Source: a virus (lineage: Duplodnaviria; Caudoviricetes). From it: DNA of 64,000 bases. The translations under genes were made by a program, and so were the position numbers. The stretch covers positions 1-64,000 of IMG/VR virus record IMGVR_UViG_3300024181_000003; one strand, given 5' to 3'. Positions 1 to 4,713 of the stretch are shown here, piece by piece (within the stretch, counting starts at the first letter, position 1; the number at the start of each line of letters is the position of its first letter). Under the pieces are notes generated by a model. It searched no databases. It was not told where the DNA came from and saw only the letters and a program-made list of their open reading frames with translations.

Positions 1-216
1 CGTGCTTTGAGTTTCCACCACCGTGACCCAAAAACGAAATTGTTCGGTATCGCTCGTCCGTCAACTGTTAGTTGGGAGAAGATAAAAGCCGAACTCGATA
101 AATGTGATCTGTTCTGTATGAACTGTCACATGGAAATCGAAGAAGAAATCTACTGGGGTGTGGCTCAATCTGGTACAGCAGACGACTGTTACTCGTCCAT
201 CGCGCAAGCGAATTGA
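1..216 (+). CDS. HNH endonuclease, 5'-truncated by window edge; 3' end runs into tRNA-Asn
   Basis: Open frame from base 1 (RALSFHHRDP...ELDKCDLFCMNCHME); same motif layout as the HNH at 2688. Confidence 0.7.
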   Translation, partial: RALSFHHRDPKTKLFGIARPSTVSWEKIKAELDKCDLFCMNCHMEIEEEIYWGVAQSGTADDCYSSIAQAN

Positions 217-242
217 AGGTTCGAATCCTTCTGCCCCAGCCA
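154..242 (+). tRNA. tRNA-Asn(GTT) with atypical long variable arm
   Basis: Acceptor TGGGGTG/TGCCCCA, G73, CCA; anticodon arm GACGA-CTGTTAC-TCGTC; T arm GAAGG-TTCGAAT-CCTTC; 17-nt variable region. Confidence 0.85.
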
Positions 243-251
243 ATTTTCAGC

Positions 252-327
252 AGGAGAATCGTCTAGCGGCCTAGGACGGCGGACTCCAAACCCGCCTACG
301 GTGGTTCAAATCCATCTTCTCCTGCCA
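252..327 (+). tRNA. tRNA-Trp(CCA)
   Basis: AGGAGAA/TTCTCCT acceptor, loop CTCCAAA, GGTTCAAATCC, encoded CCA. Confidence 0.9.
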
Positions 328-388
328 AATTATAGTTCGTGCTGAGAATGTTGCCCGGCAGGCAACGCACAGACCACAAAGTATCAAC

Positions 389-474
389 GGTGTGTTGGCG
401 AAACGGTAGCCGCACATGTTTGCTAAACATGCAGCCGAGAGGCTGTGGAGGTTCAAGTCCTTCACACACCGCCA
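389..474 (+). tRNA. tRNA-Ser(GCT)
   Basis: GGTGTGT/ACACACC acceptor, CATGT-TTGCTAA-ACATG, variable arm CAGCC-GAGA-GGCTG, G73, CCA. Confidence 0.92.
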
Positions 475-482
475 AGTTCTAC

Positions 483-571
483 AGAGGACAGCGAGCAACG
501 GTGCTCATCTGTCTTGAAAACAGCGACACGTTTCACCGCGTGACTCGGTTCGACTCCGGGGTCCTCTGCCA
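483..571 (+). tRNA. tRNA-Ser(TGA)
   Basis: AGAGGAC/GTCCTCT acceptor, loop CTTGAAA, long variable arm, GGTTCGACTCC, G73, CCA. Confidence 0.9.
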
Positions 572-615
572 TTTGAAACAAGTACATCAGAGGCCACAGG
601 CCCAAAAGATGACTT

Positions 616-1134
616 ATGAAAGACCACGAAGTGGATAGACATAGAAATATGTCTGCTCAACTAGGAATGCCTCGGGGTACCGCAGCAAACAGGCTTAGAA
701 AGCTGGTTTTGTTTGACGTGCTCCAAAGACACAAAGAGAACAACTGCTATCGATGCGGAAGTTTGATTGTTTCTGCTGATGAGCTTAGTATAGAGCACAA
801 ACAACCTTGGGAAAAAATAGATGTGAAGTTGTTTTGGGATTTGACAAACATTGCTTTTTCTCATTTGAGTTGTAATTGTGGCGCAGCAAGAAAACCATAT
901 AAAGGAAAACCGTCTCGTCAGCGCATTAAGTGCCCCGATGGGATGTCTTGGTGCCGAACGCACAAACAGTTTCTACTTGAGAACAGATTCAGTAAGCACA
1001 ATCAAACTTGGAACGGCATCAAGCGAGATTGTAAAGAGTGCGAAAAGAAATACAAAGACCGCATTCGATACGGCAAAGTTTCGGAGGACAGCGCAGACGG
1101 TCTGCAAACGGTTTCGAACACCGTGCTACCCTGA
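616..1134 (+). CDS. HNH-type endonuclease with C-terminal Cys/His zinc module; runs into tRNA-Ser(CGA)
   Basis: CYRCG...SIEHKQPW...SHLSCNC core, then CRTH...CKEC; AT-richer than flanks. Confidence 0.75.
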   Translation: MKDHEVDRHRNMSAQLGMPRGTAANRLRKLVLFDVLQRHKENNCYRCGSLIVSADELSIEHKQPWEKIDVKLFWDLTNIAFSHLSCNCGAARKPYKGKPSRQRIKCPDGMSWCRTHKQFLLENRFSKHNQTWNGIKRDCKECEKKYKDRIRYGKVSEDSADGLQTVSNTVLP

Positions 1135-1169
1135 AAGGGGTAACTGTTCAATTCAGTTCTCCTCCTCCA
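1083..1169 (+). tRNA. tRNA-Ser(CGA)-like, non-canonical
   Basis: ACGGT-TTCGAAC-ACCGT anticodon arm, ACCC-TGAAAG-GGGT variable arm, AACTG-TTCAATT-CAGTT T arm, CCA; C7.C66 mismatch, T73, D arm GCAGA-CGG-TCTGC. Confidence 0.65.
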
Positions 1170-1172
1170 TTT

Positions 1173-1246
1173 CCCCTGCAGGTGTGATGGTTGCACCTCC
1201 GACTGAAACTCGGCAGGACGTGGTTCGAATCCACGGCTCGGGACCA
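1173..1246 (+). tRNA. tRNA-Phe(GAA)
   Basis: Loop CTGAAAC, CGTGG-TTCGAAT-CCACG, ACCA end; two acceptor mismatches (CCCCTGC/GCTCGGG). Confidence 0.75.
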
Positions 1247-1374
1247 ATTTTGCGGACGGCCTAGCCAGCCTGTCAAGAGAGCAGTGTACCGTTGGCACCG
1301 GGCGCTTTAGCGACACTATCGTTGAAGGCTTGACACACTTCGCAACGTCGCTCTCGCCGCAATAAAATTTCTGT

Positions 1375-1450
1375 TGAGCGATGGTGTAACTGGCAACACG
1401 GTGGGCTTTGAACCCATCAGATAAAGGTTCGAATCCTTTTCACTCAACCA
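1375..1450 (+). tRNA. tRNA-Gln(TTG) copy 1
   Basis: GTGGG-CTTTGAA-CCCAT, AAAGG-TTCGAAT-CCTTT, T1-A72, CCA. Confidence 0.88.
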
Positions 1451-1555
1451 ATCTTTACCGCTTATGCGGGGCGCACGGTACGCCGAAGTTGTGCTCAACC
1501 CAAGTGGGTTGTTCCGAGGTGCGGTACATGGCCCTCGGCATGATGGAGTACCATC

Positions 1556-1654
1556 ATGCTATGTCCCGTGTGCAAACAGCCAAAAGCGTTTTTGATTTAC
1601 TGTCACCGCTTTAGAAAGCGCGTGTGCAAGCCATGTTGCAGAACACGGCACTAA
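1556..1654 (+). CDS. 32-aa zinc-finger microprotein (below the ORF-track cutoff)
   Basis: MLCPVCKQPKAFLIYCHRFRKRVCKPCCRTRH; CxxC...C...CxxC; GGAG 7 nt upstream of ATG. Confidence 0.55.
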   Translation: MLCPVCKQPKAFLIYCHRFRKRVCKPCCRTRH

Positions 1655-1760
1655 AATTTTAACGGCAGCTAGTCGAGGCCAAGGCCCCCGACCCGTGAAT
1701 CCCATTTAGGGGGTTTGCGGTCAGGACCTCCTAAATATGAGAATCTCACAAGGAGTATCT

Positions 1761-2270
1761 ATGAGAGATCATATAATCTCTTTGTCCCACGAGGACAGAG
1801 AGTTCATACGGAGGCTCTTGATGGCACTTACTCAAGACCTAGCAGCATCGATCAGTACGTTGGCAACAGCGGTTGATCAACTGTCGGCTCGTATCGGTAA
1901 CGGTGGACCGCAGTCTGGGTTCAGCGTTTCTGACGCGAACGTACAGTCAGCAATCGACGGCGTGAACGCGCAGACGGCTCGTCTGAATGCTTTGCTTCCG
2001 GCTTCAAACCCGGGCGCACCGCAAATCAGCAACGTGTCGCCTTCGTCAGCCCCAGTAGGAACCCAGATCACAATCGACGGTTCCGGCTTCGGCGCATCGG
2101 CAGGTAGCAGCACCGTGAAGTTCAACGGTATGGCAACCGCGCCGGACGCGAACAGCAAGTGGAGCGACACCCAGATCACCATCGACGTGCCTAACGGCGC
2201 TACGAGCGGTGGCTTGGTTGTGAACGTGAATGGCGTAGACAGTAATGCATTCGCCTTCACCGTAGCCTAA
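1761..2270 (+). CDS. IPT/TIG (Ig-like) domain protein with helical N-terminus
   Basis: PQISNVSPSSAPVGTQITIDGSGFG...VKFNG...WSDTQITIDVP; AAGGAG RBS; alternative start 1821. Confidence 0.75.
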   Translation: MRDHIISLSHEDREFIRRLLMALTQDLAASISTLATAVDQLSARIGNGGPQSGFSVSDANVQSAIDGVNAQTARLNALLPASNPGAPQISNVSPSSAPVGTQITIDGSGFGASAGSSTVKFNGMATAPDANSKWSDTQITIDVPNGATSGGLVVNVNGVDSNAFAFTVA

Positions 2271-2271
2271 A

Positions 2272-2493
2272 ATGGCAACGCTCAACATCAGTACGCAGTC
2301 ATTGACTGCGAACTGGGGTGGTATCCTCGGAGTCGTTCTAGCGGTCTGGAATCAATACAGCCCAACGCTATCGAACTTCTTCACGAACCATCCACACATT
2401 GCACTCTGGGCTTCAATCGGAGCGATGGTAGCAGCTTTCTACGTTCAGGCGACGGCACCCGCAAAAGCGGTCACACCCGTAGCTAAGGCGTAA
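2272..2493 (+). CDS. small 2-TM membrane protein (holin-like)
   Basis: Two hydrophobic segments, basic C-terminus. Confidence 0.45.
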   Translation: MATLNISTQSLTANWGGILGVVLAVWNQYSPTLSNFFTNHPHIALWASIGAMVAAFYVQATAPAKAVTPVAKA

Positions 2494-2534
2494 ACAAAAT
2501 CCCCGGGGCCTAAAAATCCCGGGACTATTTCTGT

Positions 2535-2609
2535 TGCTCTCTCGTTCAACTGGCAGGACAACGGTCTTTGAAACCGTGAATGAAGGTTCGAATCCTTCAT
2601 GAGCAACCA
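2535..2609 (+). tRNA. tRNA-Gln(TTG) copy 2
   Basis: ACGGT-CTTTGAA-ACCGT, GAAGG-TTCGAAT-CCTTC, CCA; mismatches at 6:67 and 7:66. Confidence 0.8.
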
Positions 2610-2687
2610 ATTTAGGTTTTCGGGTAGCTCCCGAGAACTAGATGGGGAGAGCCTATACTCTCCCTGTCGCTCTTATAGGAGAGTCAA

Positions 2688-3182
2688 ATGAAGATATGTT
2701 CGAGATGCGGCGTCCCAAAACACGTTCGTTATTTCGGTTTCAGAACGAATGGCCGTCCCCGATCTTGGTGCAAGAAATGCAAAAGAGAACACGACAGACG
2801 TAGTTACCACACCAAGCCGAAACAAAAAGAGTCTGTGCGAGAAAGCAACAAAGAGCACATAAAACGTAACAAAGACTTTGTTAGAGATCATCTAATGTCT
2901 CACCCTTGTGTGGATTGCGGAGAGGCAGACATCGTTGTTCTTGATTTTGACCATGTTAGAGGCGAGAAGGTAAACAACGTCGCAAACATGGTGAATCAAG
3001 GACACAGCTTAGAATCTCTCAAAGAAGAGATCGCTAAATGCGAAGTTCGTTGCGCCAACGACCACAGACGTCGAACACACGAACGAAGAAAAAGTTTATT
3101 GCCCGATAGTGCAACCGGTAGCACGCCGCTCTCTGAAAGCGGAAGTTTTGGTCCGAATCCAAATCAGGCAACCATTTTATAA
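2688..3182 (+). CDS. HNH endonuclease; last 25 codons read through tRNA-Gln(CTG)
   Basis: N-terminal CSRCG...CKKC zinc finger; CVDCG...LDFDHV...KCEVRCANDH core. Confidence 0.8.
   Translation: MKICSRCGVPKHVRYFGFRTNGRPRSWCKKCKREHDRRSYHTKPKQKESVRESNKEHIKRNKDFVRDHLMSHPCVDCGEADIVVLDFDHVRGEKVNNVANMVNQGHSLESLKEEIAKCEVRCANDHRRRTHERRKSLLPDSATGSTPLSESGSFGPNPNQATIL
3100..3174 (+). tRNA. tRNA-Gln(CTG)
   Basis: TGCCCGA/TCAGGCA acceptor, CCGCT-CTCTGAA-AGCGG, T loop TCCGAAT (C in place of T55), CCA. Confidence 0.82.
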
Positions 3183-3193
3183 AGCAGCATCAC

Positions 3194-3224
3194 AAGCCTC
3201 GGCATAGCCGGGGCTTTTCTTTTT
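3194..3224 (+). terminator. rho-independent terminator closing the tRNA cluster
   Basis: AAGCCTCGGC-ATA-GCCGGGGCTT followed by TTCTTTTT. Confidence 0.8.
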
Positions 3225-3979: not shown

Positions 3980-4098
3980 AAGTTTCTGTGGCTCAACCAC
4001 AGACAATGGTAATTCGCTAGCACGTTCAAAGCGTCTTCCCAAAAAGCATCCCGCAGGTGGCGAACCTATCGGCGGGGTGTACACATAAGGAAAACCAA

Positions 4099-4713
4099 AT
4101 GCAAGTAGTAGCAGATTTTCAAGTAAATGGTTTGTTCCCGGCTACCGTCGGTGGCACCGGAACGACCGTGAAGTACTTCCCTCGTAACGTAGCCAGCGCA
4201 GCTGGTGCGTCTTGGGTCGCAGCACCTGCAACCCCGTCCTCGACCTCACCGGTCGGCGCACTCTGGGTTCCGGGCGACAACAAGCTGAACGGCCAGCACT
4301 TCCGTGTCAACGTATCCGGCTCGGCAATCGCAGGCGCTTCGGCAGGTTCGGAAACAGTTACTTTCGGCTTGTACGCAGTTACCGGCTCGTTGGCATCTCC
4401 GACCTACACTCTGTTGAACTCGTCGGCGGTTCTGACCCCGGCGGTTGACGGCGTGCAGCACAACTTCTCGATCGTTGCTGACATGTTCGGCAACACGGAC
4501 AGCGGCATCGTCGGCGGTTCGCAGTACACCGTGATCGACAACACCGTAACGGCGACGGCAGCACTTGCCAGCTCGCTGACCGGCATCAACTTCGGTTCGG
4601 GCAACACGTCGCTGTATCAGGCGGCTCCGTTCGGACTCGTAGTCGGTGTGACCTTCTCTGTGTCGAACTCGGCCAACGCAGCCAAGCTGTACCAGTTCAA
4701 CATCGAAGCGTAA
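4099..4713 (+). CDS. beta-rich structural/decoration protein
   Basis: AAGGA RBS; Gly/Ser/Thr-rich; strong phage codon bias. Confidence 0.6.
   Translation: MQVVADFQVNGLFPATVGGTGTTVKYFPRNVASAAGASWVAAPATPSSTSPVGALWVPGDNKLNGQHFRVNVSGSAIAGASAGSETVTFGLYAVTGSLASPTYTLLNSSAVLTPAVDGVQHNFSIVADMFGNTDSGIVGGSQYTVIDNTVTATAALASSLTGINFGSGNTSLYQAAPFGLVVGVTFSVSNSANAAKLYQFNIEA

Follow-up and report, generated by a model that had tools for sequence, protein, structure and literature searches.

The DNA analysed here, referred to below as the window, comprises the first 64 kb (64,000 nucleotides; nt) of the 77.8-kb linear contig IMGVR_UViG_3300024181_000003, which comes from a virus of the Caudoviricetes. The first 3.2 kb of the window is a plus-strand array of transfer RNA (tRNA) genes, and within it three open reading frames (ORFs) that code for HNH endonucleases, also on the plus strand and designated ORF1 (1-216), ORF2 (616-1134) and ORF3 (2688-3182), lack a stop codon before the tRNA gene that follows and are read into it. 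We found that overlaps of this kind recur widely in phage tRNA arrays, where they are a property of nuclease genes, and that an ORF3-type gene is present or absent at one and the same tRNA-tRNA junction in related contigs. The account that we favour, and consider probable rather than firm, is that these ORFs are homing endonuclease cassettes anchored on tRNA genes and that they run into the tRNA as a by-product of abutting it.

A first-pass annotation of the window had claimed that the three HNH ORFs have no stop codon before a tRNA gene, and this is borne out, since each of them stops inside, or just after, the next tRNA on the same strand. ORF1, the 5' end of which is cut off by the end of the contig, overlaps the tRNA gene at 154-242 by 63 nt; codon 52 opens with base 1 of the tRNA (nt 154), the TGA stop codon at 214-216 corresponds to tRNA nt 61-63, and the last 20 codons along with the stop are tRNA-encoded. 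The overlap of ORF2 with tRNA-Ser(CGA) (1083-1169) is 52 nt long, with nt 1083 forming the third base of codon 156, residues 157-172 encoded by the tRNA and the TGA stop at 1132-1134 supplied by tRNA nt 50-52. ORF3 traverses all 75 nt of tRNA-Gln(CTG) (3100-3174), which lies wholly within it; nt 3100 is the second base of codon 138, residues 139-164 derive from the tRNA and its 3' flank, and the TAA stop at 3180-3182 falls 6-8 nt past the encoded CCA.

Profile matches and family alignments place all three ORFs in HNH (beta-beta-alpha-metal, His-Me finger) families. Residues 2-49 of ORF1 match the HNH endonuclease family phrog_2255 (E=4.9e-17) and align with family alignment A1, the CMNCH motif occupying residues 40-44. 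ORF3 matches the same family (E=1.2e-33) and carries a CANDH variant of the CxxCH motif; H89, N124 and H126 are invariant in alignment A1. ORF2 was assigned from phrog_23251 (E=2.3e-23), PF01844 and alignment A2, in which C44, C47, H61, N78 and H83 are invariant. ORF1 and ORF3 are only weakly alike and the architecture of ORF2 is different, so the three overlaps do not descend from a single event by copying. It had also been claimed that the nuclease motifs end just before the tRNA and that the remaining tail is tRNA-derived. The second part of this claim stands: when ORF3 was compared with its homologues using tblastn, most alignments ended at residues 130-136, just 5' of the tRNA, and the tails are therefore tRNA-derived additions. 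The first part does not hold for ORF2, where the HNH motif is central (residues 44-87) and it is a C-terminal, Cys-rich, zinc-ribbon-like domain that abuts the tRNA.

The generality of the layout was assessed at about 190 phage loci. An alignment-based scan of IMG/VR for the ORF3 family gave 107 ORFs, which fell into 75 clusters at 80% identity. The stop codon lay inside the next same-strand tRNA in 15 of these clusters, 0-11 nt before it in 7 and 21-120 nt before it in 4, and the overlaps, which ranged from 10 to 68 nt, involved tRNAs for Arg, Gln, Lys, Tyr, Ile, His, Trp, Met and Pro. For the ORF2 family (52 clusters) the corresponding figures were 10 clusters that overlapped a tRNA (by 10-63 nt), 11 that ended 0-20 nt before one and 5 that ended at a distance of 21-150 nt; seven clusters of this family were located 5' of tRNA-Ser genes. 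Single-protein scans of viral and metagenome contigs with ORF2 and with the protein encoded at 4057-4713 gave no matches, although alignment-based scans did yield relatives. Homologues are found within the tRNA arrays of actinophages and of Felix O1-like phages, stopping 60-118 nt and 5-9 nt before the tRNA, respectively.

As a matched control we took, from the same loci, every ORF of at least 80 codons whose end fell within a tRNA of the same strand or no more than 150 nt upstream of one; these were clustered and classed by the family hidden Markov models and Pfam. It can be seen that 36 of the 67 clusters of nuclease ORFs overlap a tRNA, compared with 5 of the 66 clusters of other ORFs (Fisher p=5e-9), and that overlaps of at least 18 nt are present in 18/67 and 0/66 clusters, respectively (p=2e-6). 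Every overlap of at least 18 nt belonged to a nuclease, with several HNH Pfam families and one PD-(D/E)XK nuclease represented. From this enrichment over the matched control we conclude that overlap is a property of nuclease genes and not of general tight packing; the pattern, which the first-pass annotation had suggested looking for in other phage tRNA arrays, recurs widely and is nuclease-specific. The same annotation had reasoned that homologues stopping mostly upstream of tRNAs would speak against control of the nuclease by tRNA processing, and on this point the outcome was mixed. Among the tRNA-adjacent nuclease clusters, which comprise both query families and five further nuclease ORFs from those loci, roughly half have their stop codon within the tRNA and most of the remainder have it 0-20 nt before the tRNA, so that a missing stop codon is frequent but not obligatory. 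Given this base rate for nucleases, finding the overlap in three ORFs out of three in the window is unremarkable (0.54 cubed, or about 0.16); three deep overlaps lie on the extreme side. No DNA motif was found to be shared at the ORF-tRNA junctions beyond protein-coding conservation and the tRNA itself.

Two further features of the surveyed loci can be recorded here. One is a recurrent class of overlap of exactly 10 nt, in which the stop codon (UAG) is the tRNA's own U8-A9-G10 (L007, L036, L058, L066, L087, L090 and L095); the same stop is also used by a few non-nuclease ORFs. The other is that some nuclease-bearing arrays carry ribosome-rescue functions (L167 2450-2818 and 1801-2280; L110 2572-2936; L003 3189-3455). 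Thus in L167 an ORF with an RF-1 domain (ArfB-like) ends 15 nt inside tRNA-Gly, and an ORF for a PD-(D/E)XK nuclease reads 38 nt into tRNA-Lys. Genes for transfer-messenger RNA (tmRNA) are present in 5 of 187 loci, that of L110 ending 64 nt before the start of an HNH gene.

Comparison with related loci indicates that the cassettes are mobile. In locus L028 the array is ordered as it is in the window, namely tRNA-Trp, tRNA-Ser(GCT), tRNA-Ser(TGA), tRNA-Phe, tRNA-Gln(TTG), an HNH gene and tRNA-Gln(CTG), followed by homologous downstream genes. The HNH gene of L028 also reads into tRNA-Gln(CTG), in the same frame as ORF3, and stops at tRNA nt 50; the tRNA-encoded tails of the two differ. Similarly L107, a close relative of ORF2 (48% identity), reads 63 nt into a tRNA-Ser of the A8 type (see below), which it and ORF2 enter in differing frames. 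At the sequence level the tRNA-encoded tails are without conservation in either pair. In L028, tRNA-Ser(TGA) and tRNA-Phe are 1 nt apart and both ORF2 and tRNA-Ser(CGA) are absent, so this pair of genes represents an insertion or deletion relative to L028.

The junction between tRNA-Gln(TTG) and tRNA-Gln(CTG) provides natural filled and empty alleles. The tRNA-Gln(TTG) gene concerned (2535-2609; ARAGORN and Rfam), which is the second copy in the window and forms the 5' flank of the ORF3 cassette, is syntenic in L028, L189 and L191. An HNH gene is present at the junction in the window and in L028, and absent from it in the metagenome relatives L189, L190 and L191, where 84 or 133 nt of unrelated spacer is found instead (L191/L190, L189). 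L028 and L191 are 93-100% identical on both sides, and another HNH gene has 131 of 132 residues identical, whereas the identity falls to ~45-60% across a block that extends from the first base of tRNA-Ser(GCT) to the end of tRNA-Gln(CTG). This swapped block (L028 5449-6486 vs L191 3023-3530) is roughly 1 kb in size and in L028 holds the extra HNH gene along with tRNA-Phe, and its boundaries coincide with the outer edges of tRNA genes. There is, in summary, both presence/absence polymorphism and block exchange, and sporadic presence together with divergent flanks, as looked for in free-standing homing endonuclease genes, was found when the window and L028 were compared with L189-L191. The L028/L191 pair is a clean natural case of a tRNA block exchanged around a nuclease gene, with the footprint that would be expected of nuclease-driven exchange, as for T4 SegB. 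The Ser tRNA alleles have diverged beyond dating. The first-pass annotation had offered, as its alternative, tRNA-anchored homing elements, and it is this suggestion that the comparative data support: both nuclease families lie directly 5' of same-strand tRNAs in many unrelated phages, and the ORF3-type gene comes and goes at a single tRNA-tRNA junction and lies in a swapped tRNA block.

We propose that the three ORFs are free-standing genes for HNH homing endonucleases, each of which occupies a spacer of the tRNA array and directly adjoins the 5' edge of the tRNA that follows. The conserved tRNA genes would serve as the homing anchor, supplying the homology arms, being co-converted as cargo and probably containing the target as well, and the enzymes would be predicted to cleave tRNA-array DNA. 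The repeated position of these families 5' of tRNAs, and of the seven ORF2-family clusters 5' of tRNA-Ser genes, is indirect evidence for such a target. A cassette that ends flush with a tRNA would as a consequence have no 3' untranslated region and often no stop codon of its own, and ribosomes would read into the tRNA as far as the first chance in-frame stop, adding a functionless tail of 16-26 residues. The overlap would then be mainly a structural by-product of where a selfish cassette is placed, reflecting tight linkage to the tRNA and compaction. Consistent with this, the overlap is nuclease-specific across unrelated nuclease families and tRNA identities, the tails are unconserved, relatives with a stop codon 0-20 nt ahead of the tRNA occur about equally often, and the cassettes are polymorphic and lie in exchanged tRNA blocks. 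Cleavage by RNase P at tRNA position +1 would sever the messenger RNA (mRNA) 5' of the stop codon, and should limit the yield of nuclease because the tRNA and the nuclease gene are apparently on the same transcript. Judging from the layout and from the biochemistry of tRNA processing, we take this truncation to be a likely side effect of the layout rather than its established cause.

That nuclease gene and tRNA share one transcript is suggested by the arrangement of transcription signals. A simple scan found no sigma-70-like promoter inside the nuclease ORFs. Directly after the ORF3 stop codon there is a strong intrinsic-terminator-like hairpin (3194-3216, plus strand; 10 pairs, of which 7 are G-C) followed by a run of T, which may close the tRNA/HNH transcription unit. 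Since there is no internal promoter-like site and a terminator only after tRNA-Gln(CTG), each mature tRNA presumably arises from a nuclease-containing transcript.

The leader of ORF3 (2610-2687, plus strand) is predicted to fold into three hairpins (2615-2639, 2641-2668 and 2669-2684; fold z=-3.8). The third of these pairs with the Shine-Dalgarno sequence AGGAGAG at 2677-2683, and in the second (GGGGAGAG...CTCTCCC) the 5' arm mimics the Shine-Dalgarno sequence and the 3' arm is complementary to it. The leader of the L028 gene (5884-5971) keeps the three-hairpin architecture with compensatory changes (GGAGGAG...CTCCTCC). To judge from its predicted folding the leader looks like a translational switch for the nuclease gene, and its hairpins resemble those that sequester the ribosome-binding sites of T4 homing nuclease genes, which have been described previously (PMC2330249). 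By comparison, the leader of ORF2, between tRNA-Ser(TGA) and the start codon, is only 44 nt long (572-615, plus strand).

A different explanation, which builds on the main inference of the first-pass annotation, is that the missing stop codon is itself selected: RNase P processing would generate a non-stop mRNA, trans-translation would tag the protein and the mRNA would be degraded, so that a toxic nuclease is held at a trace level that is tied to tRNA maturation. The biochemistry invoked is sound, and with this layout maturation of the tRNA could scarcely fail to leave a non-stop message. The absence of an internal sigma-70-like promoter and the position of the terminator, which would have each mature tRNA derive from a transcript with a nuclease ORF, fit with this idea, as do the nuclease specificity of the overlap and its persistence in the syntenic L028 gene and the family relative L107. 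In addition, the conserved hairpin that sequesters the ORF3 ribosome-binding site points to tight control of expression, a tmRNA or an RF-1-domain protein is encoded in some nuclease-bearing arrays, the proposal has already been published for SegB and the T5 F-Tfl nucleases (PMC2330249), and arfA offers a precedent, in which non-stop mRNAs made by an RNase can be regulatory (PMC10107115). However, about half of the tRNA-adjacent nuclease clusters keep a stop codon 0-20 nt before the tRNA, T4 segB (5 nt) included, which means that the non-stop state can be dispensed with; between the pairs that we compared, entry frames and tail lengths vary freely; and the 77.8-kb contig encodes no tmRNA gene. 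On this evidence we regard a selected missing stop as unlikely, if not negligibly so. Its most sweeping form, in which selection would have made the stop-less tRNA fusion a general governor of dosage in at least six nuclease families, with rescue systems setting the amount of nuclease, strikes us as somewhat less likely again, and the same doubt attaches to the corollary that rescue would be provided by host tmRNA or by tmRNA or ArfB-like genes of the phage array. If this general form were true, homing activity would be coupled both to the maturation of tRNAs and to the condition of the translation machinery.

It is also conceivable that the nucleases have been domesticated and benefit the phage, for example by amplifying or exchanging tRNA genes that counter tRNA-cleaving host defences, the fusion securing co-expression and co-inheritance. 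In keeping with such a role, SegB, which is widely associated with tRNAs and enriched beside them, can amplify tRNA-Tyr as well as anti-defence loci (PMC13096335), the content of the array differs strongly between near-identical contigs exactly at the nuclease gene, and several tRNAs of the window are odd or duplicated (two Gln(TTG), three Ser and a GTT tRNA with a long arm). The presence/absence pattern and the multiple unrelated nuclease families nevertheless fit selfish spread equally well, and no amplified segments were seen in the window; we hold domestication to be improbable, while noting that a domesticated role in the plasticity of the tRNA array is compatible both with the by-product reading and with a selected missing stop. 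Finally, the layout could reflect decay or artefact, that is, dying nuclease genes without stops, chance ORF extensions or false tRNA calls. The extensions of 16-26 codons are what is expected of a random first stop, ORF3 has a Cys-to-Asp change, and tRNA-Ser(CGA) falls under default detection thresholds. Against this, the alignment columns for catalytic and zinc-binding residues are intact, the ribosome-binding site of ORF3 is strong and its leader conserved, the tRNAs have an encoded CCA and take up cloverleaf folds, and the same layout is found in dozens of independent clusters and in phage T5. Together with the enrichment over other ORFs (p=5e-9), the survey largely refutes decay or artefact, which we consider very improbable indeed.

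The homing-cassette reading that we prefer must itself be set against a number of observations that sit less comfortably with it. It does not of itself explain the persistence of deep overlaps over long divergence. Over its first 12 nt, tRNA-Gln(CTG) of the nuclease-bearing window does not differ from that of nuclease-free L191, and thus no immunity-conferring change is visible at the 5' end of the tRNA; furthermore, when this site was used to ask whether gene and tRNA move together, the nuclease-bearing alleles of the tRNA (window and L028) proved no closer to each other than to nuclease-free ones. In ORF3, Asp replaces the fourth zinc-binding Cys (CAND-H for CANC-H), a variant shared with L035, and the match of ORF2 to PF01844 (E=4e-4, 20.9 bits) is just under the Pfam cut-off of 21.4. 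As regards the survey, the loci were chosen for carrying these nuclease families and the clusters are not fully independent at 80% identity. In addition, the family tree, built on a 75-column HNH core, is poorly resolved, with 1 of 74 branches strongly supported, so that the number of independent overlap origins is uncertain and the overlap can be described merely as scattered and somewhat clustered.

Seven tRNAs of the array were detected by ARAGORN and Rfam. ARAGORN at -ps90 adds exactly two more, tRNA-Ser(TGA) (483-571) and tRNA-Ser(CGA), and no further tRNA appeared down to -ps80. tRNA-Ser(CGA) is undetected by default ARAGORN and by Rfam at E<=1, and tRNA-Ser(TGA) was missed by default ARAGORN and by the Rfam tRNA model, scoring 33 bits with the tRNA-Sec model only. 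Both have cloverleaf folds, an encoded CCA, an unusual A8 and a small D-loop; tRNA-Ser(CGA) additionally has a C7-C66 mismatch, and its minimum-free-energy fold is the cloverleaf. A lineage of A8-type tRNA-Ser with a very small D-loop can be followed from these two genes to L107 (3430-3520) and L189 (5208-5299). The tRNA that ORF1 enters (154-242; ARAGORN; Rfam tRNA model, 48.8 bits; CCA encoded) had been labelled tRNA-Asn. The Asn-type GTT anticodon agrees with that label, but it is combined with a long, 17-nt variable arm of class II type. tRNA-Gln(CTG) was called by ARAGORN and scores 59.6 bits with Rfam. The remaining tRNA genes, all found by both ARAGORN and Rfam, include tRNA-Trp(CCA) (252-327), tRNA-Ser(GCT) (389-474) and tRNA-Phe(GAA) (1173-1246), the last of which lies 3 nt 3' of tRNA-Ser(CGA). 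Recoding, or a suppressor tRNA, was considered as a cause of the absent stop codons and is unsupported, because all nine tRNAs have ordinary sense anticodons and neighbouring ORFs use standard stops.

Relative to L028, the window carries an extra segment (1247-2534) between tRNA-Phe and tRNA-Gln(TTG). It contains a second, divergent tRNA-Gln(TTG) at 1375-1450, which is preceded by a promoter-like site (1339-1368), and ORFs of 177 (1737-2270) and 73 (2272-2493) amino acids, the second of which looks hydrophobic on inspection by eye. No PHROG match was obtained for either ORF, and both of these non-nuclease ORFs of the array have their own stop codons. When the window was compared with phage records by blastn, only tRNA-sized matches were obtained and no close relative was found among sequenced phages.

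The overlap layout is known in kind, being common for phage nuclease genes, those of T5 included, and a throttle based on tRNA processing was proposed earlier for T4 SegB. The useful additions made here are the survey figures and the filled and empty alleles. The former give quantitative support for the nuclease specificity of the overlap, the first to do so as far as the literature searched shows; within that literature, the coverage of which is incomplete, we found no paper that treats nuclease-tRNA overlap itself as a general pattern. The latter (L028 vs L191) define the swapped tRNA block. For annotators and gene finders the implication is that nuclease ORFs in tRNA arrays should be expected to end inside tRNA genes, and there is no need to trim or discard them. 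Should the long-standing SegB-type proposal be true, in which processing of the tRNA takes away the stop codon, the three genes of the window would be unusually clean test cases, because their stops are located 52-83 nt beyond the RNase P site and there would be no way round a non-stop message.

In lying within the array, on the strand of the tRNAs, and ending at or inside a tRNA, the window ORFs resemble nuclease genes of the T4 SegB and T5 heg type, and the T5 and T4 comparators were checked directly. A more distant parallel is Escherichia coli arfA, the message of which is cut by an endonuclease within its coding sequence, upstream of the stop codon, after which trans-translation sets the level of protein. 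Such a cut 5' of the stop, followed by control through trans-translation, is what has been hypothesised for RNase P; however, the arfA message is cut by RNase III at a hairpin and not by RNase P at a tRNA, its product is a host rescue factor and not a selfish nuclease, and its regulation has been shown experimentally whereas here it would be an inference.

The occurrence of HNH genes within the tRNA arrays of phages and bacteria is amply documented (PMC6409571, PMC8421152), and the comparison with phage T5 (NC_005859) is a close one. There hegD reads 23 nt into tRNA-Gln(CUG), hegC 14 nt into tRNA-Ser(GGA) and T5.069 24 nt into tRNA-Asn(GUU), so that, as in the window, the nuclease ORFs are on the same strand as the array, and the three amino-acid identities (Gln, Ser and Asn) are identical. 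The T5 genes differ in family, HNH_3 with or without NUMOD4 for hegC and hegD and a T5orf172 domain for T5.069; their overlaps are shorter, none of them crosses a whole tRNA, and the tRNA-Gln(CUG) is flagged as a pseudogene in RefSeq. Homology of hegD and hegC with ORF3 and ORF2 was ruled out at the level of BLASTP, which gave no significant similarity. Lowered expression through processing of the transcript has been mentioned for F-TflI, -II and -IV of T5, which are ORFs in the tRNA cluster (PMC2330249).

T4 SegB differs from the window nucleases in being a GIY-YIG and not an HNH enzyme, and in RefSeq the TAA codon of segB lies 5 nt before tRNA-Arg, leaving no tRNA-encoded tail. Its activity and homing have been experimentally established, whereas those of the window nucleases are predicted from sequence. 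Like them, it is encoded by a free-standing homing endonuclease gene that is located between same-strand tRNA genes, flush with tRNA-Arg. The sites that SegB cuts are within tRNA genes, and through this enzyme the tRNA region is inherited preferentially; the authors of that work proposed that, as tRNA-Arg matures, the mRNA is severed after its last codon and ahead of the stop, thereby lowering expression (PMC2330249).

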